From a virus (lineage: Duplodnaviria > Caudoviricetes), in the IMG/VR virus record IMGVR_UViG_3300033067_000970, positions 1 to 57,156 of that record: a DNA stretch of 57,156 nucleotides; one strand, given 5' to 3'. Below are positions 25,095-49,873 of this stretch, one piece after another (within the stretch, counting starts at the first letter, position 1; each line of letters begins with the position of its first letter). The notes beneath the pieces were generated by a model that saw only the letters and a program-made list of their open reading frames with translations, searched no databases and was not told where the DNA came from. The translations under genes and the position numbers were made by a program.

Positions 25095-27559
25095 TGGCGC
25101 AGCCTTTCGATCCTTTCGCCGCCGCCGGGTTCGGAGGCGCTTCAGCGCCCCCGCCGCAAGCCGAACCCGAAGGAATGTCGGCGCCCTTCGACCCGTTCGG
25201 CGCGGCGGGCTTCGCTCAAGTGGCGCCGGACGCCCCCACTCAGACCGTCGCCAAACCGCCGCGTCCGAAGGTGCTCGCGGTCATGCCGGACGGGCGCCCG
25301 ATCTTCGACGACCCGGCGCTCAACAACAAGATCACCGAGAACAACCTCCGCATCGGCGAGAAGATGGGTGAAGGGGCGACCTTCGGCCTTCTGCCGCACA
25401 TCGTCGCGGGCGTCCGGTCGCTGTTCGGGACGCCCTACCAGCAAGGGCTTGCGGAAGCGCGGAAGTTCACCAACGACACGTCGGAGGAGATGCCCGGCGT
25501 CTCCATGGCGGCCGAAGCGATGGGCGGCCTCGCCCCCGGCGGTCTGATCGGCAAAGCGGCGCAATTCGGCACCGCCGGTAGAGTCCCCGCCTTGGCCGAG
25601 AAGGCGGCGCGCGGTGCGGCCATGGGTGGCGCGTTCGGCGCCGCCAACACAGCCGGACACAACGTCGGCATGGGCACGATGGACAACTTCGCGCCTGACC
25701 TGAAGACCGCTTTTCTCGTCAACGCCGGTCTCGGCGGCGGCATCCCGATCGTCGGCGCCGGTCTGCAAGCCGGGGCGAACACAGGCCGCGCTCTCGTGAA
25801 CGCCTTCCGCAACGCGGCGACAGAGGGCGGACGCGGCGCCGTCGCGGGGCAAATCCTCAAGGAGACGATGGGCGATTTCACCGGGACCCCAGCCACGTCG
25901 CCGATCCCAGGCGTCACGCTGCGTCCGGCGCAAGCAACCGGCAATCCCGGCTTGGCGTCGCTGGAGCGCACGCTGGGGCCGGCGGGAGCGACGACGGCGG
26001 AAGACGTGGTGCAGAACGGCATGACGCCGCGGCAAACCGGCGCTCTGATCGAGCACCTGGTCGGCCCCGACAACGCTGCCCGGACTCCGACCGCGATCGT
26101 GAACGAGGCGAGCCAGCGCGGTGTCGGCACGATCCGCGCCCTGGACGCCGCGCTTGGCGGACGCGAGCGCGAACTGTGGCAAGACCCGGCACTGGCCAAC
26201 GTGACCTTCCACGGGCCAACAATGGCGCAAGGAGTGGCACGGTCGGTCGCGCAACTACCCGCGTCCTGGCGCGACGCCATCACCGGCCCGAACGCCACGC
26301 TCGGCTCGTTCCTGAAAGAACTTGGTGAACTCGGGCCGAACGCCACAATCCAGGAAGTGAACTCGGTTCGCAGCCGCATTCTCGCCGCGGCTCGCGACGC
26401 GGCGGCGGGCGCCAACCCGGACAGCGTGAAAGCGCAAGCGGCGCGGTCCATGGCTGACGCGGTCATCAACCAGATGGAGCAAGCGCCCGCCTTCGCCGCA
26501 GCGGCGCAACCGGCGACGACTCGCGTCGTGTGGGAGCCGTCAGCGTCGATCGAACATTTCGGACCCGCGCGTCGCGTAGTCGACGTGCCAGCGACCCCTA
26601 GCGGCGACGCGGCGCGTGAAGCCTACCAGCGGGCGCGGGACTTCACCCGGCAATACAACACGACGCTCGGCTTCCCCGAGTTCGACCCCATCTTCACGCG
26701 CAACTACGCCGGGAACATCACTGGCAATGATGAGGCGATCTTCGGCCGGTTCTTCGACCCTCGGGCCGGGACGTCGGCCGGGGCGAGCCGTCTGCAAGAC
26801 CTGATCGACTTCGCGACCGCCAACGGCAATCCGAACCTCGCCAATCAACTTTCCGGCGATATGCAGCAGTATCTCCGGGCGCTCGTGGCGGCGCGCGGTC
26901 GCGCCAGCACGGCGGTCGACGCCGCCGGGCGCCCGGCAGTCAATGTCCGTGATCTCGCGGCGGCGGGCGAGAACCTAGGGCCGGTCGTCGAGAAGACGCC
27001 AGCCCTCGCGCCTGCCGCGTCGGACCTGACTACCGCGGTCCAGACGGCGCGGCTTCTCGGCCGTCCGTCCTCGGTGCGAAGCGACACGGGCAGCCCGACC
27101 TACGACAAGTTGAAGAACGACCAACTGATCGCAGCCATCCTCGGGCAGTCCGGCTCGTCGGCGCTCGGGATGCTTGGAGGCGGGGCGGCAGGGTATCGCT
27201 ATACGCCGGACGACGCAGGACCGCTGACGACAGCCGCCATGACAGGCGGCGGGGCGCTCGCTGGCGCGCTTCTTGGGCGAACATTCGGCGGCAAACTCAC
27301 GAGCCTTCCACTGGCTAACAAGGTCACGAACTGGGTCAACGAACCAGCCCGCAAGGAGATCGAGAAACTCCTGGCCGGTGGTCTCGGGTCGGAGGCCGAA
27401 CTTCAGCGGCTTCTCTCTTTGCGTCCTCACCAGATGCCGAATCTCTCCGACCCCGGCGCAGTCAGCAACCTCGCCGACATCATCGCGCGGCAATCCTTGT
27501 CGCCGTCAGCGGCGGCGGTCGAGCGGCTGCGTCGTCGCCCGGCGGAGCAGGTCAGATGA
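25094..27559 (+). CDS. Large ejection protein
   Basis: 821 aa, Ala/Gly-rich; duplicated PFDPFxAAGF at the N-terminus; GATFG motif. Confidence 0.75.
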   Translation: MAQPFDPFAAAGFGGASAPPPQAEPEGMSAPFDPFGAAGFAQVAPDAPTQTVAKPPRPKVLAVMPDGRPIFDDPALNNKITENNLRIGEKMGEGATFGLLPHIVAGVRSLFGTPYQQGLAEARKFTNDTSEEMPGVSMAAEAMGGLAPGGLIGKAAQFGTAGRVPALAEKAARGAAMGGAFGAANTAGHNVGMGTMDNFAPDLKTAFLVNAGLGGGIPIVGAGLQAGANTGRALVNAFRNAATEGGRGAVAGQILKETMGDFTGTPATSPIPGVTLRPAQATGNPGLASLERTLGPAGATTAEDVVQNGMTPRQTGALIEHLVGPDNAARTPTAIVNEASQRGVGTIRALDAALGGRERELWQDPALANVTFHGPTMAQGVARSVAQLPASWRDAITGPNATLGSFLKELGELGPNATIQEVNSVRSRILAAARDAAAGANPDSVKAQAARSMADAVINQMEQAPAFAAAAQPATTRVVWEPSASIEHFGPARRVVDVPATPSGDAAREAYQRARDFTRQYNTTLGFPEFDPIFTRNYAGNITGNDEAIFGRFFDPRAGTSAGASRLQDLIDFATANGNPNLANQLSGDMQQYLRALVAARGRASTAVDAAGRPAVNVRDLAAAGENLGPVVEKTPALAPAASDLTTAVQTARLLGRPSSVRSDTGSPTYDKLKNDQLIAAILGQSGSSALGMLGGGAAGYRYTPDDAGPLTTAAMTGGGALAGALLGRTFGGKLTSLPLANKVTNWVNEPARKEIEKLLAGGLGSEAELQRLLSLRPHQMPNLSDPGAVSNLADIIARQSLSPSAAAVERLRRRPAEQVR

Positions 27560-27788
27560 GCCGCGATTTCCGCCGTAGCGGGCCAGCACACGCCCAGTCG
27601 AGCGCACGCAGCACGATCCATAGCGGCAAGACGAGCACCAGGTTGAGATGCAGATACACCCGCATCACGGCGAGGGGCCAAGGCGTGAAGAAGTTCGCGG
27701 CGTTGAACAGTGCCGCCATCAAGAACAGGACGACCGCGATCAGGGTTGATAAGACCGCCGGGATCGTGTCACACCAAGGCATCCGCAT
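27552..27788 (-). CDS. Small membrane protein, antisense to the late operon
   Basis: Two hydrophobic helices; fills the gap between + strand genes. Confidence 0.6.
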   Translation of the reverse strand: MRMPWCDTIPAVLSTLIAVVLFLMAALFNAANFFTPWPLAVMRVYLHLNLVLVLPLWIVLRALDWACAGPLRRKSRLI

Positions 27789-36687: not shown

Positions 36688-39147
36688 TCACAACGACTCC
36701 TGCGCCCACCGGATGATCTTGTCCCAGTCCCAAGAGCCGTCCGGCAACTCGAACTCCTTCGGCTTCTTGGACCAGAATATCTCAACCGATTTGCCCAAGC
36801 GGCGGCGTCCGAGGCATGTCCACCCTTGGGAAAGCAGGTATCGCCTGATCTCCCACTTGGTCAAGACGCTCTCAGTAAGCGCCTCGATCTCGTCTCGTAG
36901 CCGCGAGAAGATGAGCAGTTCCTCCGTCACGTCCTCGCGCTGCGTCTCCTTCAAGGTCGCCTCGATGTCGCTGTCCTCGGCCGAGCGCGACATGGCGATC
37001 ATGTAGTCCCGCGCCTTCGTGAGCGGCGCGCGGCCGACAGGATCGAACTCGGGGTGCAACGGCATCTCGATCAGCCAGCGGCGCAGGGCGCCAGGCGACT
37101 CGTCGAGCGCCTTGAACAAGTCGACGAAGTAGCTGGGGCGCTTGCGGAGGTGCGACCGCACGTCCTCGGCGGTCTGGAAATCGGAGCGCAGGACGAAGTA
37201 GCGCCGGTCGTTGTTGTTGATCGGCAGCGCGTCGACGAAGTTGGTCAGCAGGACATAGGACTGCGTGTTCGGCACCTGGTAGTGCCCCTCGTATTTCACC
37301 CGCATGGCGATCACCGAGTTGGTGATGAGGGGCTTGATCGTGTTCATCACGTCATGGCGGTTGTTGCCATGCAGCTTCACTTCCTCGACCACGGCCAACT
37401 GCGAGCCCGACGCCCAGTCGTTGAACCCGCTTTCGAGCGTCTTGCCGTCGATCGTCTTCACGTTGTCCGACCCGAGCACCGCCCCCATGAGCGGTGTGAT
37501 GAAGGACTTGCCGTCGCCCTCGACGCCTTGCAACATGACCGCCCAATTGATGCGCCTGCCGCCTCGGGCGATGTGGCCGAGGAAGGAGAGCAACAGGTCG
37601 CGTTCTCGCGCGTCGGGGATCAGGTTGGCGAAATGGGCGTGAACGCGGCCGATGTTGATCTCGTCCATCTTCGTCAGGTCGCGCGGGACGGCGGGCACGA
37701 GATTGCGGCGGTAGGAGTTGACCACGGGGCGCCCCTGAAAGTGGAAGAAATCATCCTCGCCGGGCATGTAGACGAGGTGGTCGGCGGTGGGGATGTGCAT
37801 GGCGTTCAGGACGAACGTCGATGCGGGCGTGTCCGGCATCGTCTTTCCCGCGGCGCGCTGCGCCTCGGTAATCATCCGCCGGTTGAACTGCGAGTCGAAC
37901 CCCACCCTGGTCGACGACGAGCCTGACGGGACGTGGTAGAACTTGTCGCTCATCGTGAGGTAAGCCCACCCCTTCGCCCAGTTGGGGTCGTCGATGTCAC
38001 GGATGGCCAGCGGCATGATGGCCCTGGCGCGCGACTCGGAGAGCGGCGAGCCCTCGACGCGCCTCCAAGCGTTGCGGAATGCGCCGATGAGACGGTCGCG
38101 ATCAACCTGCCCGAGCGGCCCGATATCCATCGCCTTCTCGGCGGCGGCCTTCAAGTCTTCAACCGTCTGCGCCTTGGTGAACAGGCTGCGGGTATCGTTG
38201 ACGTTCTGGCGCGTGTCATCGTCAAGGATGGAGCGGCCCATCTTGATGATGTAGCGGGCCGTGACGACGCGGCGCGTCCCCTGCGACTCCTTGAACGACT
38301 TCCACTTCGCGTTGAGGACGTCTTCGGCATACTTGTCCGACTTGGCTGACCAGTCGTGCCATATGTCGAGCCCGTCGTCGCCGAACTGGTGTTGGAGCGC
38401 CATGCCGACGTGGAGCCAGACGTCGTAGTCGTCGGACGAGATGCTGTCGAGATAGCGCACGATCGTGTCTTTGTCGACGTCGACCGGGTCCTGCGCGAAG
38501 GCCAGGGCGTCGTCAGGAGACGCGGGGAGGACGGTGTGCGACTGCGCCCGCGTGTGGGCGACCTGGAGGGCCGGGCGCGTCCAACCCCTCTCCTGGGCAA
38601 ACTGGTCGAAAGCAGCGAGGACTTCTGCGCCGAGTTCGGCGGTCAGGATCGGCAGTTTCGACCGCAGCGTGTTCAGCGGCGTGTCGGCCGACCAGCGATA
38701 GGGCTTCCTTGTGTCCGGATGGACGGCCCACGCCACGAACTGCTGGCCTTCTCCGAGAATTTCGACCTTGTGGCGCGTCCCCTCGTGGTCGAGCCATGTG
38801 CTCTGCATCTTGCGGAAGGGCTCGTCCGTCCGATAGACGAGCAGCCGCTTGGGCGCCAAGCCGACGCGGACAGGCGCCAAGCCTAGCCGCTCGTGGCACC
38901 ACACTTCCAGATCGTCTGCCATCTCCTTGTCGGTGACGTCGATGTCGATCGCCGGAGTCGCGGCGGTGCGGATGCCAACGCCGTCATGCGCTCTCCCATT
39001 GGCGAGCCAGGCGTCGAGGTTTTTCTGTGACGACGGGACTTTCTGCCACCCGTCCATGCCGGGGTGCTTGAGGCCGGGCTTGATGGGGACGATCTCATAG
39101 CCCGCTTCGAGCAGGCGACGCCCGTGGAGCGCGAGGTAGTCCCTCAT
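36688..39147 (-). CDS. Primase-polymerase / PriCT-2 / SF3-like helicase fusion
   Basis: IVPI...AIDIDV prim-pol; YDVWLHVGMAL..WS..S.KY PriCT-2; GVEGDGKS P-loop. Confidence 0.9.
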   Translation of the reverse strand: MRDYLALHGRRLLEAGYEIVPIKPGLKHPGMDGWQKVPSSQKNLDAWLANGRAHDGVGIRTAATPAIDIDVTDKEMADDLEVWCHERLGLAPVRVGLAPKRLLVYRTDEPFRKMQSTWLDHEGTRHKVEILGEGQQFVAWAVHPDTRKPYRWSADTPLNTLRSKLPILTAELGAEVLAAFDQFAQERGWTRPALQVAHTRAQSHTVLPASPDDALAFAQDPVDVDKDTIVRYLDSISSDDYDVWLHVGMALQHQFGDDGLDIWHDWSAKSDKYAEDVLNAKWKSFKESQGTRRVVTARYIIKMGRSILDDDTRQNVNDTRSLFTKAQTVEDLKAAAEKAMDIGPLGQVDRDRLIGAFRNAWRRVEGSPLSESRARAIMPLAIRDIDDPNWAKGWAYLTMSDKFYHVPSGSSSTRVGFDSQFNRRMITEAQRAAGKTMPDTPASTFVLNAMHIPTADHLVYMPGEDDFFHFQGRPVVNSYRRNLVPAVPRDLTKMDEINIGRVHAHFANLIPDARERDLLLSFLGHIARGGRRINWAVMLQGVEGDGKSFITPLMGAVLGSDNVKTIDGKTLESGFNDWASGSQLAVVEEVKLHGNNRHDVMNTIKPLITNSVIAMRVKYEGHYQVPNTQSYVLLTNFVDALPINNNDRRYFVLRSDFQTAEDVRSHLRKRPSYFVDLFKALDESPGALRRWLIEMPLHPEFDPVGRAPLTKARDYMIAMSRSAEDSDIEATLKETQREDVTEELLIFSRLRDEIEALTESVLTKWEIRRYLLSQGWTCLGRRRLGKSVEIFWSKKPKEFELPDGSWDWDKIIRWAQESL

Positions 39148-40061
39148 ATGCCGCACCCCAAATCATCGCAAGGAAGATCGGGTTCGTTGGTCGGAGCGGG
39201 TCGTTCGGCCGCGACGTCAGCAAGTATGGCCGCATAGGCATACTTGGCGCCCTTGCGAAAAGTCTTGCCCGCCCCGTCTCCACGCGGCACCGCTTCTTGA
39301 GCGGCCCACCAATCAAGCGCGCCTGGGTGATCTTTCTCGACCTGCATAAGAGACGCGCGAGACTTCAAAAAACACCCGTCGCAGTTCCCTTCCCACGGAC
39401 CGGCAAGACGTAAATCGAAAGGCCGCGCTTTCCAAAATTGAAGCACGTCGATTTGTTCGACGCCTGCTTCAAACAGAGGGCAAATCACATCCCAACGATC
39501 TTTTTTGTTGCGCGCAGGATCGGTTGCTTTGACGACGCGGCCCGGCTCGTCCGCGCGGAGCCCGACTACGTTCGTCCACCGTTTCCAGCCGAACACGTCC
39601 ACGAGGTAGCGTTTGGCGGTTCTTATCTTGAGTTCGATCGTGCAAAACCGCGCGACCGGATTCGGAAGCGCGCTCTTGCGCGCCAACATATCCTTGAAAG
39701 GTTCGCCGTTTCGCGCGGCGCGCCTATAATCTGTCACGCGGTAGGACGGCTTGTCGTTCGCTCCCTCATACTCCAACCAGGTGATGGGGACGAGCCAGCG
39801 TTCCGATACATCGCGGACGAACTCCAGTGTGGGTTCCATCTCCTTGCCAGTGTTTTGAAACAGCACGACGACGTCGTCAGGGAGGACGCCATGATGCGAC
39901 TCCAAAATACGCCAAAGCATGTAGGCGCTGGTGCGCCCGCCTGAGAAACTAATGACCGCCGGGCCGGTGATGTGGAAAGGATCGGGGCGGTCGCGCGCCC
40001 AACCGTTCAGACCAACCGCGAGCCCGAGTTCGCGCAGCTTTTGCTCGAAATGGACAGGCAT
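39144..40061 (-). CDS. PAPS-reductase / PP-loop family enzyme (DndC-like superfamily)
   Basis: SFSGGRTS, FQNTGKE, RFCT.ELK, GLRADE, GNCDGC. Confidence 0.85.
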   Translation of the reverse strand: MPVHFEQKLRELGLAVGLNGWARDRPDPFHITGPAVISFSGGRTSAYMLWRILESHHGVLPDDVVVLFQNTGKEMEPTLEFVRDVSERWLVPITWLEYEGANDKPSYRVTDYRRAARNGEPFKDMLARKSALPNPVARFCTIELKIRTAKRYLVDVFGWKRWTNVVGLRADEPGRVVKATDPARNKKDRWDVICPLFEAGVEQIDVLQFWKARPFDLRLAGPWEGNCDGCFLKSRASLMQVEKDHPGALDWWAAQEAVPRGDGAGKTFRKGAKYAYAAILADVAAERPAPTNEPDLPCDDLGCGI

Positions 40062-40324
40062 CACTCACCCAACAGGTCTGAGGCTTTCACGGCGCCGTCC
40101 GTGGCGCTCTCGATCTTCTCCGCCAACTCGCGGGGGAGCGGCTTCTTCTTGTTGAGCCAGTTGGTCAGGCTGGACGGGTGCAGCCGGAGTCGGCGCGCCA
40201 TCGCGCTCGTCGTGCCTTGCGGCGACGCGAGCAACGCGGCGGTGCGTAGCAGATAGCGGCGGTGCTGGAACGCCTTGTCCGTATCAGGCACCTTGTCGAG
40301 CCAGGTGGGGGCGGGAACAGTCAT
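40061..40324 (-). CDS. Cro/YdaS-like HTH regulator
   Basis: MARRLRLHPSSLTNW...AEKIESATDGAVKASDL. Confidence 0.8.
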   Translation of the reverse strand: MTVPAPTWLDKVPDTDKAFQHRRYLLRTAALLASPQGTTSAMARRLRLHPSSLTNWLNKKKPLPRELAEKIESATDGAVKASDLLGE

Positions 40325-40328
40325 CGAA

Positions 40329-40412
40329 ATCCTCCGTGACCTCCCATATACCCCCTTGCGGACAGAAAATCAATCCGCTATATGGGTGACGCCAACCAAC
40401 CCCACGGAGGAT
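40329..40412. promoter_or_regulatory. Overlapping divergent promoters
   Basis: + strand TTGCGG-N17-TATATG; - strand TTGATT-N17-TATATG; both followed by CACGGAGGAT. Confidence 0.75.
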
Positions 40413-40419
40413 ATCGGAC

Positions 40420-40983
40420 ATGGCACTTGAGGACAAGATCGACGCCCTGACGGCGGCGATCAACAAGAACACCGAGATCGTGCGCGAGCACATCGCCCTG
40501 CTGAAGAATGCGCCGCTGCCTAGCGTCATGGCGCCGTCCAGCGAACTCGTCCAGACCGCGTCGGTCAACGTCGCCGTCGCCGCCGCAATCGCCCCCGATG
40601 GCAAGAAGCGCCGCGGTCGGCCGGCGAAGACGATCCAGCCCTCGGCGATCGAGCCCGAGGCCGAAGACGAGGAGCCCACCGACGCCGTCGCGTCCGAACC
40701 CGAACCCGAGCCGGAGCCCGAGCCTGAGCCTGAGCCGGAACCCGAGCCCGAGCCCGAACCCGAGCCGGAGCCTGAGCGCAAGATGGTGCCGACGTTCTCC
40801 TACGACGACCTCAAGGTCGAACTGACGATGGCGCTCAAGGTCATCGGCCGCGACAAGGTGAAGTCGATCATCTCCGACATCGGCGGCGTCGAGGCGTCGA
40901 AGGACCTTCACCCCGACGACTACGGCGACGTCGTCAAGGCGCTCCAACTCGCCGTCGAGGCGCACGACCCGGAGGAGGTGTGA
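40420..40983 (+). CDS. Replication-operon protein: N-terminal coiled coil, RRGRP motif, (EP)n linker, small helical C-terminal domain
   Basis: Strong RBS; architecture visible in the translation. Confidence 0.85.
   Translation: MALEDKIDALTAAINKNTEIVREHIALLKNAPLPSVMAPSSELVQTASVNVAVAAAIAPDGKKRRGRPAKTIQPSAIEPEAEDEEPTDAVASEPEPEPEPEPEPEPEPEPEPEPEPEPERKMVPTFSYDDLKVELTMALKVIGRDKVKSIISDIGGVEASKDLHPDDYGDVVKALQLAVEAHDPEEV
40694..40776 (+). repeat. 6-bp repeat encoding (Glu-Pro)n
   Basis: ga[ag]cc[cgt] tandem run. Confidence 0.92.
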
Positions 40984-40984
40984 C

Positions 40985-42163
40985 GTGAGCGAGCGCGCCC
41001 ACGCGGTCTTCTCGCCTTCGGCGGCGCATCGGTGGCTCCCCTGTCCGGGGAGCCTCCAGCCGAACCTACTCGCGGAGGGCGACGGCGACGGGTCGTCGCC
41101 CTACGCCGAGGAGGGCACCGCGGCGCACGCCCTGGCCGAGAAGATGCTGCGCGGCATGGACGTGGTCGGCGACCCGGTCATGCTCGACTACGTGCGTCAG
41201 TACGTCGACTGGGCGAACGAGGCGGCGGCCGACGCCGACCTGGTGCTGATCGAGGAGCGCGTGAACTTCTCGGCGTGGACGCCGCTGCCGAACCAGTTTG
41301 GCACGGCGGACCACGTCGCGATGCACTTCACGAAGATGGGCGGCGTCTGCACGATCACCGACCTCAAATACGGTATGGGCGTCCGAGTCCGCGCCCGCGA
41401 CAACCCGCAACTCATGCTCTATGCCCTCGGCGTCCTCGACGCCTACGACTTCATCGGCGACTTCAAGCGGTTCGACCTGCGTATCTGTCAGCCGCGCCTC
41501 GGCATGTTCGACACCTGGGAAGTCAGCCGGGCCGACCTGCTGGCGTTCGGCGAATACGTCAAGGAGCGGTCGGCTCTCGCGCTTGAGCCGAACGCCCCCC
41601 GCGTGGCGGGCGAGAAACAGTGCAAGTTCTGCAAGGTCAAGGCGTCCTGCCCGGCGCAGGTCGATCTGCTTCACCAGCTTGCCGAGGACACGTTCGAGGC
41701 GGTCGAGCCGACGACAGCCATCTCGGCGGCAGCGGCGGTCGATAGCCGCCCATCGCTCCCCGCCATCGCCGACATGACGGTCGCGCAGAAGGCGCGCATC
41801 CTGCCCTACCGGAAGACGGTCGAGAACTGGTTCAAGGCGATGGCCGAGGACCTGGAGCGCCGTGCCAACGACGGCGAGACGATCCCCGGCTACAAGATGG
41901 TGGCGGGGCGCTCGCGCCGCCAGTGGACCGATGAAGCGGGCTTGGCGACCACGCTCGCGACCTATAGCATCGACCCCTGGGATACGTCGCTCGTCGCGCC
42001 TTCCGAGGCCGAGCGCCGCATGATGAAGGCCGGTATGAAAAGCAAGGAGGCCAAGGCCGCGGTCGCGGCACTGACGACCAAGCCCCTCGGCAAGCCGACA
42101 CTCGTGCCTGACAGCGACGAGCGCGACGAGGACGACGCCGGGGATGTTTTCGACGCCGTGTGA
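40985..42163 (+). CDS. DUF2800 Cas4-like PD-(D/E)xK nuclease
   Basis: HAVFSPS.AHRW..CPGS, EGTAAH, FGTAD, DLKYG, CKFC...C. Confidence 0.9.
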   Translation: MSERAHAVFSPSAAHRWLPCPGSLQPNLLAEGDGDGSSPYAEEGTAAHALAEKMLRGMDVVGDPVMLDYVRQYVDWANEAAADADLVLIEERVNFSAWTPLPNQFGTADHVAMHFTKMGGVCTITDLKYGMGVRVRARDNPQLMLYALGVLDAYDFIGDFKRFDLRICQPRLGMFDTWEVSRADLLAFGEYVKERSALALEPNAPRVAGEKQCKFCKVKASCPAQVDLLHQLAEDTFEAVEPTTAISAAAAVDSRPSLPAIADMTVAQKARILPYRKTVENWFKAMAEDLERRANDGETIPGYKMVAGRSRRQWTDEAGLATTLATYSIDPWDTSLVAPSEAERRMMKAGMKSKEAKAAVAALTTKPLGKPTLVPDSDERDEDDAGDVFDAV

Positions 42164-42220
42164 CCGTCGCGGCGTCGTCGAAGACGACAGACGGTTTCAA
42201 CTGTGAAAGGTAAGACGACT

Positions 42221-42805
42221 ATGGCTCGCGAGAATCGTACGACGGTGAAGTCTGTGGAGAACGCCACTCTCTTTTCCGATGGGACCATCCTGCTGAAGAA
42301 CGTCCGGGCGTCCTACCCGCACGTCGTCACCCAGGGCAAGTTCGACGGCAAGGACAGCGGCTACTCCATCCAGGCGATGATGCCGAAGAAGTCCCACGCC
42401 AAGGCGATTGCCCTGGTGAACGAGCAGATCGAGAAGACCAAGACCGAGGCGAAGGTCAAGGTCGCGGCCGACAAGATCGCGTTCAAGGACGGCGACAACT
42501 CCGACAAGGACGCCTACGACGGCTGCATGGTCCTGTCGGCGCGTGAGACCAAGCGCCCCGCCCTGCGGGACGCGCGGAACGAGCGCATCGACGTCGACAA
42601 GGCGGACGGCATCTTCTACGGCGGCTGCTGGGTCAATGTTCTCGTCCGCCCATGGGCGCAGAACAACTCCTGGGGCAAGCGGATCAATTTCAATCTGCTG
42701 GCCGTCCAGAAGGTGCGTGACGACGAGGCGTTCGGCGAAGGCCGGATCACCGAGGACGAGATCGACGACACGTTCGCCGACGAGACCGAAGACCTCGACG
42801 TCTGA
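42221..42805 (+). CDS. DUF2815 / gp2.5-like ssDNA-binding protein
   Basis: VRASYP, FYGGCW, VQKVRDDEAFG, acidic tail. Confidence 0.88.
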   Translation: MARENRTTVKSVENATLFSDGTILLKNVRASYPHVVTQGKFDGKDSGYSIQAMMPKKSHAKAIALVNEQIEKTKTEAKVKVAADKIAFKDGDNSDKDAYDGCMVLSARETKRPALRDARNERIDVDKADGIFYGGCWVNVLVRPWAQNNSWGKRINFNLLAVQKVRDDEAFGEGRITEDEIDDTFADETEDLDV

Positions 42806-42814
42806 CGGAAGGAG

Positions 42815-42838
42815 GCCCCGCCTGGCAACGGGCGGGGC
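42815..42838 (+). other. GC-rich hairpin with GCAA tetraloop
   Basis: GCCCCGCCTG-GCAA-CGGGCGGGGC; no U tract. Confidence 0.7.
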
Positions 42839-42847
42839 TAACCGAGC

Positions 42848-43663
42848 ATGACAATCCTCGCCCACGACCACGAGACGGCGAGCGAGGTCGACCTGAAAGA
42901 AGAAGGGCTCGACCGCTACGCCTCGCACCCGTCAACGCGCGTCCTGATGACGGCCTACAAGATCGACGACGGGCCGGTGCGGCTCTGGACCGCGGAGCGC
43001 GGCAGGGCGTTCCCGTTGACCGAGATGCTTCTCGACCCGAAAGTCATCAAGGTGGCGTTCAACGCCCAGTTCGAGCGCACGATCGCCCGCAAGGTGCTCA
43101 AGATCGACACGCCCTACACCAACTGGCGATGCACCATGGCGCTCGCCTACTCGCAGTCCTACGTCGGCAACCTGGAGGACATCGGCAAGCAGATGGGCTT
43201 GTCGGAGGACAAACAGAAGAACAAGCGCGGCAAGGCGCTGATCCGCATGTTCTGCTCCCCCGACCGCAAGACCGGGCGCATCTGGAAGCCACACGAGAAG
43301 CCCGAGGAGTGGGAGGAGTTCAAGCGTTACTGCGTGCAGGACGTGATCGCCGAGGAGCATATCCGCGAGCGGCTTGAGCGGTTCCCGATCGCTGACCGCG
43401 AGTGGGACCTCTACGAGTTGGACCAGCGCATCAACGACACCGGCCTGCCGATCGACATGCGCTTCGTCAGCAACGCCATGCGGCTGTCCAAAGTCCGGCG
43501 CGACGCCCTGTTCGCCGAGATCAAGGCGATCAGCGGCGTGGCCAATCCAGGGGCGCCGGCACAGATGCTCGCCTGGTTGAAGACGCAAGGCTACCCTTTC
43601 GACGACATGCAGAAGGACACCGTGGTCAAGGCGCTGAAGGAGCGAGACGAGTATGACAGTTGA
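42848..43663 (+). CDS. Family A DNA polymerase, N-terminal part (3'-5' exonuclease to start of thumb)
   Basis: DHET ExoI, AFNAQFER ExoII, YCVQDV ExoIII, DQRINDTG. Confidence 0.9.
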   Translation: MTILAHDHETASEVDLKEEGLDRYASHPSTRVLMTAYKIDDGPVRLWTAERGRAFPLTEMLLDPKVIKVAFNAQFERTIARKVLKIDTPYTNWRCTMALAYSQSYVGNLEDIGKQMGLSEDKQKNKRGKALIRMFCSPDRKTGRIWKPHEKPEEWEEFKRYCVQDVIAEEHIRERLERFPIADREWDLYELDQRINDTGLPIDMRFVSNAMRLSKVRRDALFAEIKAISGVANPGAPAQMLAWLKTQGYPFDDMQKDTVVKALKERDEYDS

Positions 43664-44816
43664 CGTGATTCACGCGGACTGCCGCTGCGCCTTGGCGGCG
43701 ATGGCGTCGGAAAGCATCGACTCCGTGGTGACGGACCCGCCCTACCACCTGACCACCGGCAAGAAGGGCGGCACTGGCGAAGCCTCTGTCGACCTCGATA
43801 GCCCATACGGGCGATCGCGCATCACCGCCGGCTTCATGGGCAAGCAATGGGACGGCGGCGACGTCGCGTTCCAGCCAGACCTCTGGCGAGCCGTTCTGCG
43901 CGTCCTCAAGCCCGGCGGCCACGTCCTCGCCTTCGGAGGCACACGCACCTACCACCGTCTCGCCTGCGCGATCGAGGACGCCGGTTTCGAGATACGCGAT
44001 CAGATCGGTTGGCTCTACGGCACCGGCTTCCCGAAAAGTCACAACCTCGATGGCGACTGGCGGGGCTGGGGCACCGCCTTGAAACCCGCCTGGGAACCCA
44101 TCGTCGTCGCTCGCAAACCTCTCATCGGCACCGTCGCCGAAAACGTCCAAACTCATCGCGTCGGCGCCCTGAACATCAACGGATGCCGTATCCCAACCGA
44201 CGACAATCTGAACGGGGGAGCCTACGCCGCCGAAGGTGGCAGGTCCGTCTCGGGTTCCCTTCACGGCGGAAGCGGCATGAACCAACCCGGAAAGACGACT
44301 GGCAAGGAGTTCACACCTCCCCCCGGCCGATGGCCCGCCAACATCATCCACGACGGATCAGACGAAGTCATCGCGGCGTTTCCGGCCAACGCGGGAGGCG
44401 GATACGGAACCGAAAACAAAACATCCAGCGGGGTTTACGGCGCGTATTCAGGGGCGACTAAGGGGCGCCTTGTTGGATTTGGAGATGCGGGCTCCGCAGC
44501 ACGCTTCTTCTACACCGCAAAAGCATCCAAAGCCGAACGCCAAGGCTCCAAACACCCAACAGTCAAACCCCTCGCTCTCATGCGATACCTCTGCCGCCTC
44601 GTCACGCCGCCCGGCGGCACTGTCCTCGACCCCTTCGCCGGCACCGGCACGACCGGACAAGCCGCCCGAGAAGAAGGCTTCAACGCCGTCCTCATCGAGC
44701 GCGAAGACGAATACGTCGCCGACATCCGACGCCGTCTTGGCATCGAGGATAAAATTTCCGACGCGCTTCGCGGTCTAGGCGCCGCAGTCGATGCCAACAT
44801 TGGGGCACGCTCGTGA
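43653..44816 (+). CDS. DNA amino-methyltransferase (beta class, DPPY)
   Basis: VTDPPY, HPTVKP, LDPFAGTGTT. Confidence 0.95.
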   Translation: MTVDVIHADCRCALAAMASESIDSVVTDPPYHLTTGKKGGTGEASVDLDSPYGRSRITAGFMGKQWDGGDVAFQPDLWRAVLRVLKPGGHVLAFGGTRTYHRLACAIEDAGFEIRDQIGWLYGTGFPKSHNLDGDWRGWGTALKPAWEPIVVARKPLIGTVAENVQTHRVGALNINGCRIPTDDNLNGGAYAAEGGRSVSGSLHGGSGMNQPGKTTGKEFTPPPGRWPANIIHDGSDEVIAAFPANAGGGYGTENKTSSGVYGAYSGATKGRLVGFGDAGSAARFFYTAKASKAERQGSKHPTVKPLALMRYLCRLVTPPGGTVLDPFAGTGTTGQAAREEGFNAVLIEREDEYVADIRRRLGIEDKISDALRGLGAAVDANIGARS

Positions 44817-46072
44817 CCCCGGAAGCCGTCGCCGTCCTACGTCTCTATCAGAAGGCCACACGCGCCAGCGTGAAGAAATACAACGCCGTCGACAAGGGGA
44901 TCGGTGAAGGCGACAGGCTCCGCAACACCTTCCAGTTCGCCGGGGCGTCACGCACGAACCGTTGGGCCGGGAGGCGCTTCCAGCCGACCAACCTGACCCG
45001 GACGCCCAAGAGCCTTGAAAACGTCCTGCACGAAGCCACCGATGCGATCCGCAACGGCGACGATGACTACCTCGACGTGCTCATCGGCGAGCCCATGGAC
45101 GCCCTGGCGGGCTGCCTGCGCTCCGCGATCCGGGCGCAGAACGGCTACGAACTCAGGGCGTGCGACCTCAACGCCATCGAGACCCGCGTCATCGGCTGGC
45201 TGGCGGGATGCGAGAAGCTGCTGGACGTCTTTCGTCAAGGGCTCGACCCCTACAAGGCGTTCGCGGTCTATCTGTTCGACGTGCCCTATGAACAGGTGAC
45301 GCGGACCCAACGGAACGACAGTAAGCCGCCTACGTTGGGCTGCGGCTTCGGGCTCTCTGCCGGGGAGCAGGTCGGCGACAAGAAGACCGGCCTTCTCGGC
45401 TACGCCGACAAGATGGGCATTCCCTTCACGCCTGAGTTCGCCAAGCGCGCCGTCCGCATCTATCGGGAGACCTACGCCGAGGTGCCGCAGTTCTGGAACG
45501 CCATCGGCGACGCGGCCAGGGTGTGCGTGAAGACCGGCAAGACGCAGGAGATCAACCAATGGCTGCGGTTCGAGCGCCGCGGTTCCTACCTCGCGCTCCG
45601 GCTACCCTCGGGCCGCTACATCTACTACCTCCACCCGAAGATGCTGACGACCTGGTGGGCCAAGCACCCCTACACGGGCGCGATCAAGTCGCTCGGCCCC
45701 GACGAGCCCCGCGCGCAGCGCGCCAAGGCGAAAGGGTGGGAAGTGTTCGACCGCCTGAGCCTGACCTACATGGGCAAGCCGCAGAACAAGACGGGTTGGG
45801 AGCGTGTCATCACCCATCCCGCCAAAGTTTGTGAAAACGCGGTGCAGGCCGTAGCGCGCGACGTCCTCAAGGAAGGGATGCTGCGCGCCGACGCGGACGG
45901 CTTCAACATCGTCCTCCACGTCTATGACGAAATCTGCTGCGAGGAGCGCATCACCGACCGCTACCACTCGGTCGAACGCCTCGCCGAGCACATGAGCGCG
46001 CCGATCGACTGGGCGCCCGGCTTGCCGCTCGGAGCGGCGGGCTGGTCCGGCCCGTTCTACAAGAAGGATTGA
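44813..46072 (+). CDS. Family A DNA polymerase, C-terminal polymerase part
   Basis: GASRTNRWAG, motif A DLNAIE.R, motif B R...K...L, ENAVQAVARD, motif C HVYDE. Confidence 0.92.
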   Translation: MTPEAVAVLRLYQKATRASVKKYNAVDKGIGEGDRLRNTFQFAGASRTNRWAGRRFQPTNLTRTPKSLENVLHEATDAIRNGDDDYLDVLIGEPMDALAGCLRSAIRAQNGYELRACDLNAIETRVIGWLAGCEKLLDVFRQGLDPYKAFAVYLFDVPYEQVTRTQRNDSKPPTLGCGFGLSAGEQVGDKKTGLLGYADKMGIPFTPEFAKRAVRIYRETYAEVPQFWNAIGDAARVCVKTGKTQEINQWLRFERRGSYLALRLPSGRYIYYLHPKMLTTWWAKHPYTGAIKSLGPDEPRAQRAKAKGWEVFDRLSLTYMGKPQNKTGWERVITHPAKVCENAVQAVARDVLKEGMLRADADGFNIVLHVYDEICCEERITDRYHSVERLAEHMSAPIDWAPGLPLGAAGWSGPFYKKD

Positions 46073-46075
46073 GGG

Positions 46076-46306
46076 TTGAAACAGATATCGCTTGCGTCCG
46101 TCTATGGCCGCATCCGCATCGCCATCAACAAGGCCGGCACGCAGAAGGCGTGGGCCGAGGAGATCGGCGTCTCGCCGCAGTTCTTGAACGACGTCCTGCA
46201 CGGCAAACGCCAGCCGTCCGACCGGATGTTGAAACCGCTTGGCATAATCCGTCAAACGACGTATAGCGTGGAAGAGGAACCGACCGATGCCGCTCATTCT
46301 CGGTAA
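46076..46306 (+). CDS. XRE/Cro-like HTH protein
   Basis: TQKAWAEEIGVSPQFLNDVLHGKR. Confidence 0.75.
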   Translation: MKQISLASVYGRIRIAINKAGTQKAWAEEIGVSPQFLNDVLHGKRQPSDRMLKPLGIIRQTTYSVEEEPTDAAHSR

Positions 46307-46724
46307 ACCGTGGACATTCGCCGACCGCGACAAGCTGCGGGTGCTATGGGCGACGCAAGCGTCCGCCGCGGAGATCGGCGAGATGCTCGGCGGCCGGACG
46401 AAGAACTCCATCTTGGGGGAGGCCCACCGCATGAAACTGCCACTGCGCGCGACTCCGGCCAATCTTGCCAAGGAGGCGAAGAAGTCCAGCGCGCCCGTCG
46501 TGCGTATCGCGGGAGATGGCCTGACGCTGCCGCTGCCGCCGTCCGTCGCGCACATGGACCCAAAACAGTTCGGCCCTGCGCTCCCCAGCGTGCCGCGCTC
46601 ATGCACCTGGCTGGTGAGCCATGACCGCCCGTGGCGTGCCTGTGAGGCCGTCCTAGCGCCGGGGAAACCCTACTGTGTCGCGCACGCTGCGATCGCCTAT
46701 GTCGTGTTGGAGAAGAGGGCGTGA
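46287..46724 (+). CDS. gcrA: GcrA-like regulator
   Basis: WT...L..LW...SAAEI..LGGRTKNSILG.AHR.KL N-terminus; C.W...C...PYC..H..IAY C-terminus. Confidence 0.85.
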   Translation: MPLILGKPWTFADRDKLRVLWATQASAAEIGEMLGGRTKNSILGEAHRMKLPLRATPANLAKEAKKSSAPVVRIAGDGLTLPLPPSVAHMDPKQFGPALPSVPRSCTWLVSHDRPWRACEAVLAPGKPYCVAHAAIAYVVLEKRA

Positions 46725-47689
46725 TTCTGGTCGGAGACACGCGGAAGGTTCTGAAGACGCTTCCTGTCGAAAGCGTCCAGTGTTGCGTCACGTCGCCCCC
46801 TTACTTCGGCCTACGCGACTACGGCGTCGATGGTCAGATCGGGCTTGAGCCATCGCCCGACGAGTATGTCGCCGAATTGGTGGCTGTGTTCCGTGAAGTG
46901 CGGCGTGTGCTGCGGGCGGATGGGACGCTGTGGCTTAACCTGGGAGACAGCTACGCTCGCCAAGGGGGAGAGGGCGGCCACGGGCCTAATGCTCAAGTCG
47001 GCAACACAAAATCGCTTGAACAACGGCGGATGCTTGTCCCGCCGTCTGGGACAAAGCCCAAAGACCTCCTCATGATCCCCGCCCGCGTCGCGCTGGCCCT
47101 CCAGGCGGACGGCTGGTGGCTCCGCTCCGACATCATCTGGCACAAGCCCAACCCGATGCCCGAGAGCGTGACCGACCGACCTACGTCGGCGCACGAGCAT
47201 GTGTTTCTGCTGACCAAGAGCGCGCGGTATTTCTACGACGCGGAGGCGGTGAAGGAAGAGGCTTGTTATCCAGTTGGATCCCGCGAGGACGTGCCGAGGG
47301 GAGGGTTTCAAGGCAAAGGCTCGGATCCCAGGGGGCAAGAAGCATTCCGCGCCATTCGCGACACCCGCAACCTCCGCAACGTCTGGACCATCGCCACTCA
47401 GCCTTTCTCTGGCGCTCACTTCGCCACCATGCCGCCCGATCTGGTGGAGCGGTGCATCAAGGCAGGCTCACGCCCCGGTGACATGATCCTCGACCCGTTT
47501 GGCGGCGCGGGCACGACCGGGCTTGTCGCGCAGCGTCTAGGCCGCGACTACACGCTGATTGAACTCAATCCGACATACGCCGACATGGCGCGAGACCGGA
47601 TCAACGCTGAAACATCAGGGGTGGAGGGTGCTTTGGCGCGGCTAGGCAAGGAGGTGGAGAAGAATGCGCGAATCCGTCATCGAGCGTAA
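46721..47689 (+). CDS. DNA methyltransferase (beta class, SPPY; likely N4-cytosine)
   Basis: VTSPPY, HFATMP, LDPFGGAGTT. Confidence 0.93.
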   Translation: MILVGDTRKVLKTLPVESVQCCVTSPPYFGLRDYGVDGQIGLEPSPDEYVAELVAVFREVRRVLRADGTLWLNLGDSYARQGGEGGHGPNAQVGNTKSLEQRRMLVPPSGTKPKDLLMIPARVALALQADGWWLRSDIIWHKPNPMPESVTDRPTSAHEHVFLLTKSARYFYDAEAVKEEACYPVGSREDVPRGGFQGKGSDPRGQEAFRAIRDTRNLRNVWTIATQPFSGAHFATMPPDLVERCIKAGSRPGDMILDPFGGAGTTGLVAQRLGRDYTLIELNPTYADMARDRINAETSGVEGALARLGKEVEKNARIRHRA

Positions 47690-49288: not shown

Positions 49289-49547
49289 GCCGCTTGTAGT
49301 AGTGCTTGGAGCACAGCCGTGTGCTGGCGTTGACCACCGCGTCGCGACAGTCCGGCGACACGCAGGGGAGCCGCCAGCGTTCCTCGGTGTGCGCCTGGCA
49401 GTAGCGGGACTTCTTGAACGAACGCGAGGCGCACCCCGGCTCGGCGCAAGTCTTCGACGGCCATCGCTCGCGGATGTAGCACCGCCGGCACTTGCCTGTG
49501 GCGTAGTGAACGCGCGAGCATCCCGGCGTGGAGCAATAACGGATCAC
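49275..49547 (-). CDS. Triple Zn-binding-repeat protein
   Basis: Three C-x4-C...C-x2-[CH] units. Confidence 0.65.
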   Translation of the reverse strand: MIRYCSTPGCSRVHYATGKCRRCYIRERWPSKTCAEPGCASRSFKKSRYCQAHTEERWRLPCVSPDCRDAVVNASTRLCSKHYYKRLRCS

Positions 49548-49873
49548 CCCATCCTCTCGCGCATCAGGTCGAGGATGGCGTCGGCGGCGGGTAGCCGCTC
49601 CTCGTCGTAAACCACGTCGATCAGCGCCTCCGCCACCTCCTCCCTCGTCGGCAGCGCGACGGGGGCGCGGCGGTTCCAGGCATCGGCGGCGTCCTGTTGC
49701 CAGTCTGGCAGGCCGCCCCAGTTGGCGCGCACATCGGGGCTTCGTGCGCCGCAATCGCATTCGATCCACGCCCATTTGCCGATCTGCGCCTTGCTGCCGC
49801 TGTCCGTCGCGAGGTTGTCGGTCATGTTCGGCACCGTGTCGCACCACGGACACGCCCTAAGCGCCTCGGTCAT
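49544..49873 (-). CDS. Lar-like restriction alleviation protein
   Basis: LRACPWC...IECDCGA...A..AWNRR. Confidence 0.75.
   Translation of the reverse strand: MTEALRACPWCDTVPNMTDNLATDSGSKAQIGKWAWIECDCGARSPDVRANWGGLPDWQQDAADAWNRRAPVALPTREEVAEALIDVVYDEERLPAADAILDLMRERMG

Follow-up and report, generated by a model that had tools for sequence, protein, structure and literature searches.

Complete modification of phage DNA ahead of host restriction is usually credited to the abundance of the modifying enzymes or to their timing. Encapsulin cargo-loading peptides and dockerin-type modules are portable tags that work at either terminus of a protein, and in GCN4-type leucine zippers a core Asn sets partner and register. 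Closer to replication, the PIP box of Dnmt1 binds PCNA (PMC9690074), among phage proteins MuC has a clamp-binding motif (bioRxiv 10.1101/2025.01.04.631326), and the acidic C-terminal tails of single-stranded DNA-binding protein (SSB) and T7 gp2.5 bind polymerase and helicase (PMC5686142). Here we describe the virus record IMGVR_UViG_3300033067_000970 (Duplodnaviria; Caudoviricetes; 57,156 bases, CheckV completeness 100%, G+C about 65%), the whole of which is called the window below. In it, two predicted N6_N4 DNA methyltransferases (MTase1 and MTase2) and a PAPS-reductase-like enzyme carry terminal 15-residue peptides, hereafter tags, that resemble the N-terminal helix of a protein encoded from position 40420 (the 40420 protein). 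The latter belongs to an unannotated family found just upstream of DUF2800 genes, which we call U; this is our own label and not a curated family.

Like clamp motifs and PIP boxes, the tags are short, terminal and outside the catalytic core, and could bring an enzyme to the replication machinery. Unlike them, they are helical heptad peptides and not extended ones, they resemble a phage-encoded helix, and their hub is only putative. The tails of SSB and gp2.5 are comparable in that one short type of terminal peptide organises several replication proteins, but there the hub bears the tail and the clients the pockets, whereas here the clients would bear the tag, which is amphipathic and not acidic. 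As in GCN4-type zippers, hydrophobic residues at positions 1, 5, 8, and 12 are followed by Asn at the next core position, and in the U protein the heptads continue to about residue 28; the enzyme tags differ in having two heptads and a conserved Gly. With encapsulin and dockerin tags, at the level of the concept only, they share that one short element recurs at either end of unrelated enzymes; they show no sequence likeness to these, and the tags have no linked shell or scaffold gene. In the open papers that were searched, we found the U family and the enzyme tag nowhere described, nor any phage methyltransferase with a clamp-type tail.

Terminal peptides of the three enzymes

An earlier note, made from this DNA alone, had aligned the four peptides without gaps as h-x3-[LI]-x2-L-[GT]-x2-[VI]-x2-N, and had taken them for a portable coiled-coil tag that assembles modification enzymes with the 40420 protein. 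All four are exact translations at the positions and on the strands given in Table 1, and the enzyme peptides do lie outside the catalytic domains: in both MTases the Pfam match ends (residue 358 in MTase1, 291 in MTase2) 10 residues ahead of the tag, and the PAPS-like tag precedes its domain, for which the Pfam match begins at residue 36 and the PHROG match at residue 29. The pattern also fits as described. In strict and in loosened form it matches exactly these four sites in the 77 open reading frame (ORF) products of the window (17,094 residues), where 0.018 and 0.66 matches are expected, and the background rate is as expected in 240 other phage loci (6 strict and 100 loose matches in 3.03 million residues). 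Because these very peptides served to derive the pattern, the counts alone prove little, and other tests were run. The ORF set comes from a crude gene calling by third-position G+C content (GC3), so that the null sets probably include some ORFs that do not represent genes.

We could find no predicted DNA-modifying enzyme in the genome other than MTase1, MTase2, and the PAPS-like enzyme: a profile search gave exactly two PF01555 genes, those of the two MTases, and no match to PF00145 or PF02384. We compared the termini of 70 window proteins with a matrix made from the N-termini of 40420 homologs of other phages, whose U motifs were chosen solely by phmmer with the 40420 N-terminus and which holds no sequence from the present genome. 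The 40420 protein, MTase1, MTase2, and the PAPS-like enzyme take ranks 1 to 4. The probability that the three named enzymes fill the top three of 69 places is 1 in 52,394 (1.9e-5), and that of the two MTases alone occupying ranks 2 and 3 is 1 in 2346. A broader matrix, including all type-A N-termini, places the enzymes at ranks 2, 3, and 5 of 70 (P = 7.6e-5); the two are BLOSUM matrices of 4 or 9 family motifs.

Treating the three enzymes as a predefined group leads to a similar picture. Their best terminal triple scores 70, a value matched by 4 of 8000 random triples, and when a fourth peptide is added to it, the 40420 N-terminus stands out, with 134 against 104 for the next candidate. When the null consists of homologs of the same families, drawn in random combinations from other phages, the two statistics for which the PAPS-like enzyme must resemble the MTases are attained in 1 to 28 of 4000 draws; the plain sum is attained in 2-7% of draws, a figure driven by the domain homology of one MTase to the other. 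The resemblance exceeds chance only with the enzymes grouped by function beforehand.

The comparison also works in the opposite direction. We made a matrix of nothing but the three enzyme tags and ran it across 1,410,117 six-frame positions from 80 DUF2800 loci; the five best matches were LEQAIKDLTAAVEAN, LEDRIAELTAAVEAN, LETAIAKLTEAVEAN, and LEAAITALTAAVEAN, the last one twice, with the motif LExxIxxLT[AE]AVEAN. In four of these loci (L280, L320, L304, and L301) the motif is seen to begin at residue 3, after M-S (MSLE...), upstream of DUF2800; the fifth match lies in L308. These U homologs score 71-83 against the tags, and the 40420 protein itself 64. A resemblance picked from noise should weaken in homologs, yet here the tag score rises. 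Every pair of tags recovers the U motif among its top matches, as do MTase1 alone and MTase2 alone. Judged by these comparisons, the resemblance to the U N-terminal motif is quite probably real for MTase1; for MTase2 and the PAPS-like enzyme we hold this with lower confidence.

An apparent N-terminal match in L325 was rejected, as it proved to be the duplicated N-terminus of a neighbouring helix-turn-helix (HTH) gene. In L325:9920-11106, the HTH N-terminus of about 25 residues, MT[SA]AVATGA[DG]LVAKLRSDCAAAGGQG, occurs twice, before the PAPS-like gene and at the HTH gene, a repeat that looks like the insertion footprint of the PAPS-like gene.

Unrelated terminal helices as a possible reading

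The peptides might instead be unrelated amphipathic terminal helices, used for homodimerisation or prolonging the last helix of a domain, whose likeness stems from helix grammar and from the selection made by a reader, with no common partner. This is the main rival to a shared docking role, and we regard it as fairly unlikely. Several observations nevertheless suit it and weigh against a shared, selected peptide. By local score, the six tag pairs stand only at ranks 29, 72, 160, 755, 1381, and 1389 of 11,704. When the best set of four peptides is sought among terminal segments without guidance, the sum-of-pairs score of 134 reached by the peptides of the earlier note is attained in 40 of 150 shuffles, which is not significant, and the plain sum under the same-family null, given above, points the same way. 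The peptide length of 15 residues and the terminal segments of 30 residues were themselves taken from the alignment in the earlier note. Because MTase1 and MTase2 are homologous, their tails may count as one event and not two. The PAPS-like tag drops to rank 7 or 18 when whole proteins and not termini are scanned, and does not recover the U N-termini by itself. A hidden Markov model (HMM) of nine U N-termini from other phages, in which the MSIEALIQ subtype predominates, misses the enzyme tags, which score at noise level.

Codons 2-28 of the PAPS-like gene contain no in-frame ATG, GTG, or TTG; with no alternative start between codon 2 and the conserved DPF, the N-terminal extension must be translated, and most homologs begin with M-x-DPF, at about residue 26 of the window protein. 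The closest homolog, P0127, with 168 of 253 residues identical (66%), has the extension FAEKLRDLDMAARRM at the place of the tag, which keeps F1, L5, and L8 and lacks G9, V12, and N15, i.e. it holds three of six motif positions. This homologous, half-conserved extension means that the extension is partly inherited and older than the full motif. P0127 was the sole homolog to come from a search of 5.8 billion proteins restricted to the N-terminal region of the PAPS-like protein, and its contig of 1.5 kb offers no gene context.

The other phages examined do not repeat the pattern. Five other loci encode a U homolog together with an MTase; compared with the U N-terminus of the same locus, the MTase termini come only 5th to 28th among 63-91 ORFs and do not match it. 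A second U-like motif is missing from three other U-bearing phage records that were scanned whole, with a matrix selected partly by likeness to the tags: the runner-up scores there are 21.0-25.8, and in the window MTase1 reaches 30.8, MTase2 25.5, and the PAPS-like tag 20.5. PF01555 genes are absent from the five records whose U motif is closest, two of them at least 90% complete.

Against unrelated helices speaks the fact that the top three termini in the comparison with the other-phage matrix are exactly the three predicted DNA-modifying enzymes of the genome, as do the MTase ranks taken alone and the higher scores against U homologs than against the 40420 protein. In addition, the tag pattern occurs in none of 149 tails of MTase homologs (see below), and all three enzymes have L-G at motif positions 8-9, which is not part of the generic grammar of coiled coils.

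The U family

The 40420 protein matches no Pfam or PHROG family. Searches for its relatives by word-indexed HMMER gave matches to the low-complexity EP run only, and neither tblastn against phage records nor pattern scans of viral and genome contigs found any. The family was recovered only through gene position: comparable same-strand ORFs lie upstream of DUF2800 in most of 80 related loci. Their N-terminus is a helix that often starts MSLE and carries an invariant N-T (motif M-S/A-L/I-E...N-T), their middle is a variable linker rich in Pro, Glu, Ala, and Lys, and the alignment shows a C-terminal helical domain of about 60 residues. The HMM of the nine other-phage N-termini matches residues 1-22 of the 40420 protein at E=1.1e-6; pairwise sequence scores of the C-terminal domain are weak, with a best E of 0.015.

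The Asn of the 40420 peptide is the invariant N of this "NT". Conservation of the peptide across U proteins, including those of the five PF01555-free records, makes it a feature of the family and not a tag added to the 40420 protein, so that the idea of a portable tag does not hold for this member of the four.

In the AlphaFold2 (AF2) model of the 40420 protein, a helix spans residues 2-30 (pLDDT 85-92), followed by disorder at 31-127 and by helices at 128-142, 144-153, and 165-181. The heptad positions of the first helix are L3, I7, L10, I14, N17, V21, H24, and L28, a spacing that puts the invariant Asn17 at a core position. A coiled coil calls for hydrophobic heptad spacing over at least three or four heptads. 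The 40420 protein, with a confident helix and heptad spacing, is a candidate for one, and the enzyme tags comprise only about two heptads. In these, the core positions are limited to 1, 5, 8, 12, and 15, and both their shortness and the mid-motif Gly common to all three count against the docking reading given below.

The AT-hook-like RRGRP, the (EP)n run, and the C-terminal helical domain noted earlier are all present. AT-hooks have an R-G-R-P core between basic residues; KKRRGRPAK has this core with basic flanks and lies in the disordered linker (pLDDT about 50), and any DNA binding is putative. In BFVD, the 40420 model matches uncharacterised proteins of phages including Enc34, AH2, PaMx28, and RDJL Phi 2. 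A fold search of the PDB yielded no match with E <= 0.001; a match to 6m9k_F, the C-terminal domain of Red-beta, at E=2.9 is a lead only. A search of the ESM Atlas returned unnamed viral clusters only, with scores of at most 0.85.

The U homologs of L320, L307, and L280 have strongly acidic tails with a hydrophobic close (...DDEDEEGMV, ...DEDDDGALV, and ...EEDDDDSLM, respectively), and the window protein ends in ...HDPEEV (40957-40983). The acidic tails are reminiscent of those by which T7-type SSBs bind polymerase (PMC5686142).

Tails of the methyltransferases

Both MTases are clear members of PF01555, with 103.8 bits for MTase1 and 162.9 for MTase2 against a Pfam gathering cut-off of 26.7. 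The catalytic consensus of N6_N4 methyltransferases, (D/S)PPY, appears as TDPPY in MTase1 and as TSPPY in MTase2, and S25, P26, P27, and Y28 are invariant in an alignment of 32 sequences. In the AF2 model of MTase2 built on this alignment (mean pLDDT 79), the tag forms the outer part of a terminal helix, residues 284-321, with pLDDT of 83-92 over blocks; no row of the alignment covers the tail, so the confidence in this helix comes from the query sequence alone.

Alignments with MTase homologs (tblastn, IMG/VR; 43-64% identical) end at about residue 362 in MTase1 and 297 in MTase2, ahead of the tags. Among distinct, complete tails of homologs, the core pattern of the tag is found in 0 of 72 for MTase1 and 0 of 77 for MTase2, and a search restricted to the MTase1 tail in 5.8 billion proteins gave no tag-like tail among the 22 matches listed. 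A different short motif is common in these homologs: [LMI]F occurs a few residues from the C-terminus in 58 of the 72 tails of MTase1 homologs and 37 of the 77 of MTase2 homologs, where 2.4 and 3.0 are expected as derived from the protein bodies, and with Qx[DS][LM][FL] forms added the latter count becomes 46 of 77. The tail consensus is [DE]-x-[GA]-P-[LM]-F-[AG], and some tails read AAQLDLL or AAQMDVF. Bacterial beta-clamp-binding peptides have the consensus QL[SD]LF, which the PLF and QxDLF tails of the homologs look like. The tags do not share this motif, as the last 30 residues of MTase1 and MTase2 contain neither [LMI]F nor Qxx[LM][FL]. That the homologs have another short motif where the window enzymes have their tags makes the tail position look like a docking site for the replisome.

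A possible docking helix

We hypothesize, tentatively, that the enzyme tags are docking helices mimicking the U N-terminus, which is our preferred reading, although we cannot call it probable. The amphipathic N-terminal helix of U, with its heptads and core Asn, would be an assembly or docking element of the family. The two MTases and the PAPS-like enzyme would carry look-alikes of its first 15 or so residues on terminal extensions, and each look-alike would dock its enzyme where the U helix docks, either onto U itself, in a mixed helical bundle, or onto a partner of U in the phage replisome. With either partner, new phage DNA would be modified during its synthesis, and homologous methyltransferases elsewhere seem to reach the same end by a tail that lies at this position and resembles clamp-binding peptides. 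As hub, the U protein and the normal binding partner of its helix are equally conceivable, as the sequence does not discriminate between them. A prediction of the complex of MTase1 with residues 1-60 of the 40420 protein scored 0.00 against a mark of 0.34, which speaks neither for nor against binding. It is more doubtful that the U N-helix is a general assembly handle of DUF2800-SSB-PolA replisomes, and that the look-alikes put modification at the phage's own fork in replacement of tails of the host-clamp type.

If the docking reading is true, a tethering tag would provide a physical mechanism for modifying phage DNA before restriction, and a widespread unannotated family heading DUF2800-type replication modules would gain a first function, within a phage-encoded hub-and-tag system for replication-coupled modification. 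The clamp-like MTase tails, perhaps a more general by-product of this work, point to replication-coupled methylation as a common phage strategy.

A common signal could also be of another kind, such as a peptide for a protease adaptor, giving timed degradation of early enzymes, or for a capsid-loading receptor. The tags are short, found at either terminus, and outside the domains, by analogy with degrons and cargo-loading peptides, and the genome invests in anti-restriction, with a Lar-like gene, two MTases, and a PAPS-like gene. We consider such a signal improbable, given that gene order ties the U motif to DUF2800-SSB-PolA modules and not to head genes, that the tails of homologous MTases resemble replisome (clamp) motifs, and that Pfam and PHROG searches detected no protease among the part of the ORFs that they covered.

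Very improbable, in our view, is that the tags are a by-product at the DNA level, from overlapping signals (ribosome-binding sites, gene overlaps, and insertion joints) or copied DNA, with no selection on the peptide. One point for it concerns MTase2: the K-E-V codons of its tag, AAGGAGGTG at 47648, end 7 bases ahead of the ATG of the next gene at 47664 and are likely the ribosome-binding site of that gene. The MTase2 tag is therefore partly under constraint at the DNA level, which counts against docking and, together with its place as a prolongation of the domain's last helix, also favours the unrelated helices discussed above. Furthermore, the MTase1 stop codon overlaps the start of the gene for the polymerase half of PolA, and both MTase tags encode L-G by CTA, a rare codon (53 of about 1325 for Leu), followed by GGC. 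On the other hand, codon-shuffled controls align at the DNA level as well as the four tag-coding segments do among themselves (p = 0.13 to 0.75), and nothing points to recent copying from the resident U gene. The N-terminal tags of the 40420 and PAPS-like genes overlap other genes by 1-4 bases at most, and the likeness is to a protein motif conserved over phages with very different DNA. The GC3 of the enzyme tags (0.55, 0.61, and 0.73) shows no enrichment, and that of the U N-terminus is 0.90.

As a side observation on the same segments, CTAG is strongly under-represented throughout the window (38 seen, 181 expected from base composition), and CTAGGC lies in both MTase tags, at 44775 and 47642.

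Genomic context

The features are listed in Table 1. The PAPS-like gene likely starts with the ATG at 40061, overlapping the TGA of the upstream gene. Its product scores 21.1 bits with PF01507, below the cut-off of 22.5, and its role in DNA modification is putative.

Table 1. Coordinates of the features in the window (position 1 is its first base).
Feature	Position	Strand	Remarks
40420 peptide, LEDKIDALTAAINKN	40426-40470	+	residues 3-17 of 187; first 15 residues of the family's N-terminal heptad helix
MTase1 tag, ISDALRGLGAAVDAN	44754-44798	+	residues 368-382 of 387; 5 residues ahead of the stop codon
MTase2 tag, VEGALARLGKEVEKN	47621-47665	+	residues 301-315 of 322; in the modelled terminal helix
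PAPS-like tag, FEQKLRELGLAVGLN	40005-40049	-	residues 6-20 of 306; in the N-terminal extension of about 25 residues
40420 protein gene	40420-40983	+	187 aa; ends 1 base ahead of the DUF2800 gene at 40985
PAPS-reductase-like gene	39144-40064	-	phrog_424 4.8e-49, residues 29-305
MTase1, N6_N4 DNA methyltransferase	43653-44816	+	PF01555 1.6e-29, residues 22-358; phrog_67
MTase2, N6_N4 DNA methyltransferase	46721-47689	+	PF01555 1.5e-47, residues 19-291
DUF2800 PD-(D/E)XK nuclease	40985-42163	+	Pfam; conserved neighbour of the 40420 gene
Enc34-type ssDNA-binding protein	42203-42805	+	Pfam; conserved neighbour of the 40420 gene
Family A DNA polymerase, exonuclease half	42848-43663	+	phrog_17 positions 670-919
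Family A DNA polymerase, polymerase half	44813-46072	+	phrog_17 positions 936-1232
GcrA-like cell-cycle regulator	46287-46724	+	PF07750, 1.8e-11; directly upstream of MTase2
Lar-like restriction-alleviation protein	49544-49873	-	phrog_599, E=1.8e-8
Replication module, minus-strand part		-	primase/VapE-like gene and PAPS-reductase-like gene
Replication module, plus-strand part		+	in order: 40420 gene, DUF2800, Enc34-type SSB, PolA split by MTase1, HTH, GcrA-like gene, MTase2, VRR-NUC gene, SNF2 helicase

In the window, the MTase1 gene cleanly divides the exonuclease and polymerase halves of PolA, with start/stop overlaps at both joints. PolA is uninterrupted in most relatives. L309 and L313 have an MTase2-type gene within PolA at a site that differs from that of the window, several other loci have gaps inside PolA, and in many related loci an MTase gene directly adjoins PolA. 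The position of MTase genes beside or inside PolA is consistent with a functional link between methylation and replication.

GC3 is 0.73, 0.72, and 0.66 for the genes of MTase1, MTase2, and the PAPS-like enzyme, and 0.88-0.91 for the neighbouring replication genes, which suggests that the tagged enzyme genes joined later than the surrounding module. The pair of GcrA and MTase genes, there followed by a PAPS-like gene, is also present in L325, a locus from a Sandarakinorhabdus metagenome-assembled genome, which suggests an alphaproteobacterial host.

The top terminal pairwise score of the genome belongs to two ORFs, 27552-27788(-) and the Lar-like 49544-49873(-), which have an N-terminal PWCDT[IV]P in common; the former may be a second Lar-like copy.

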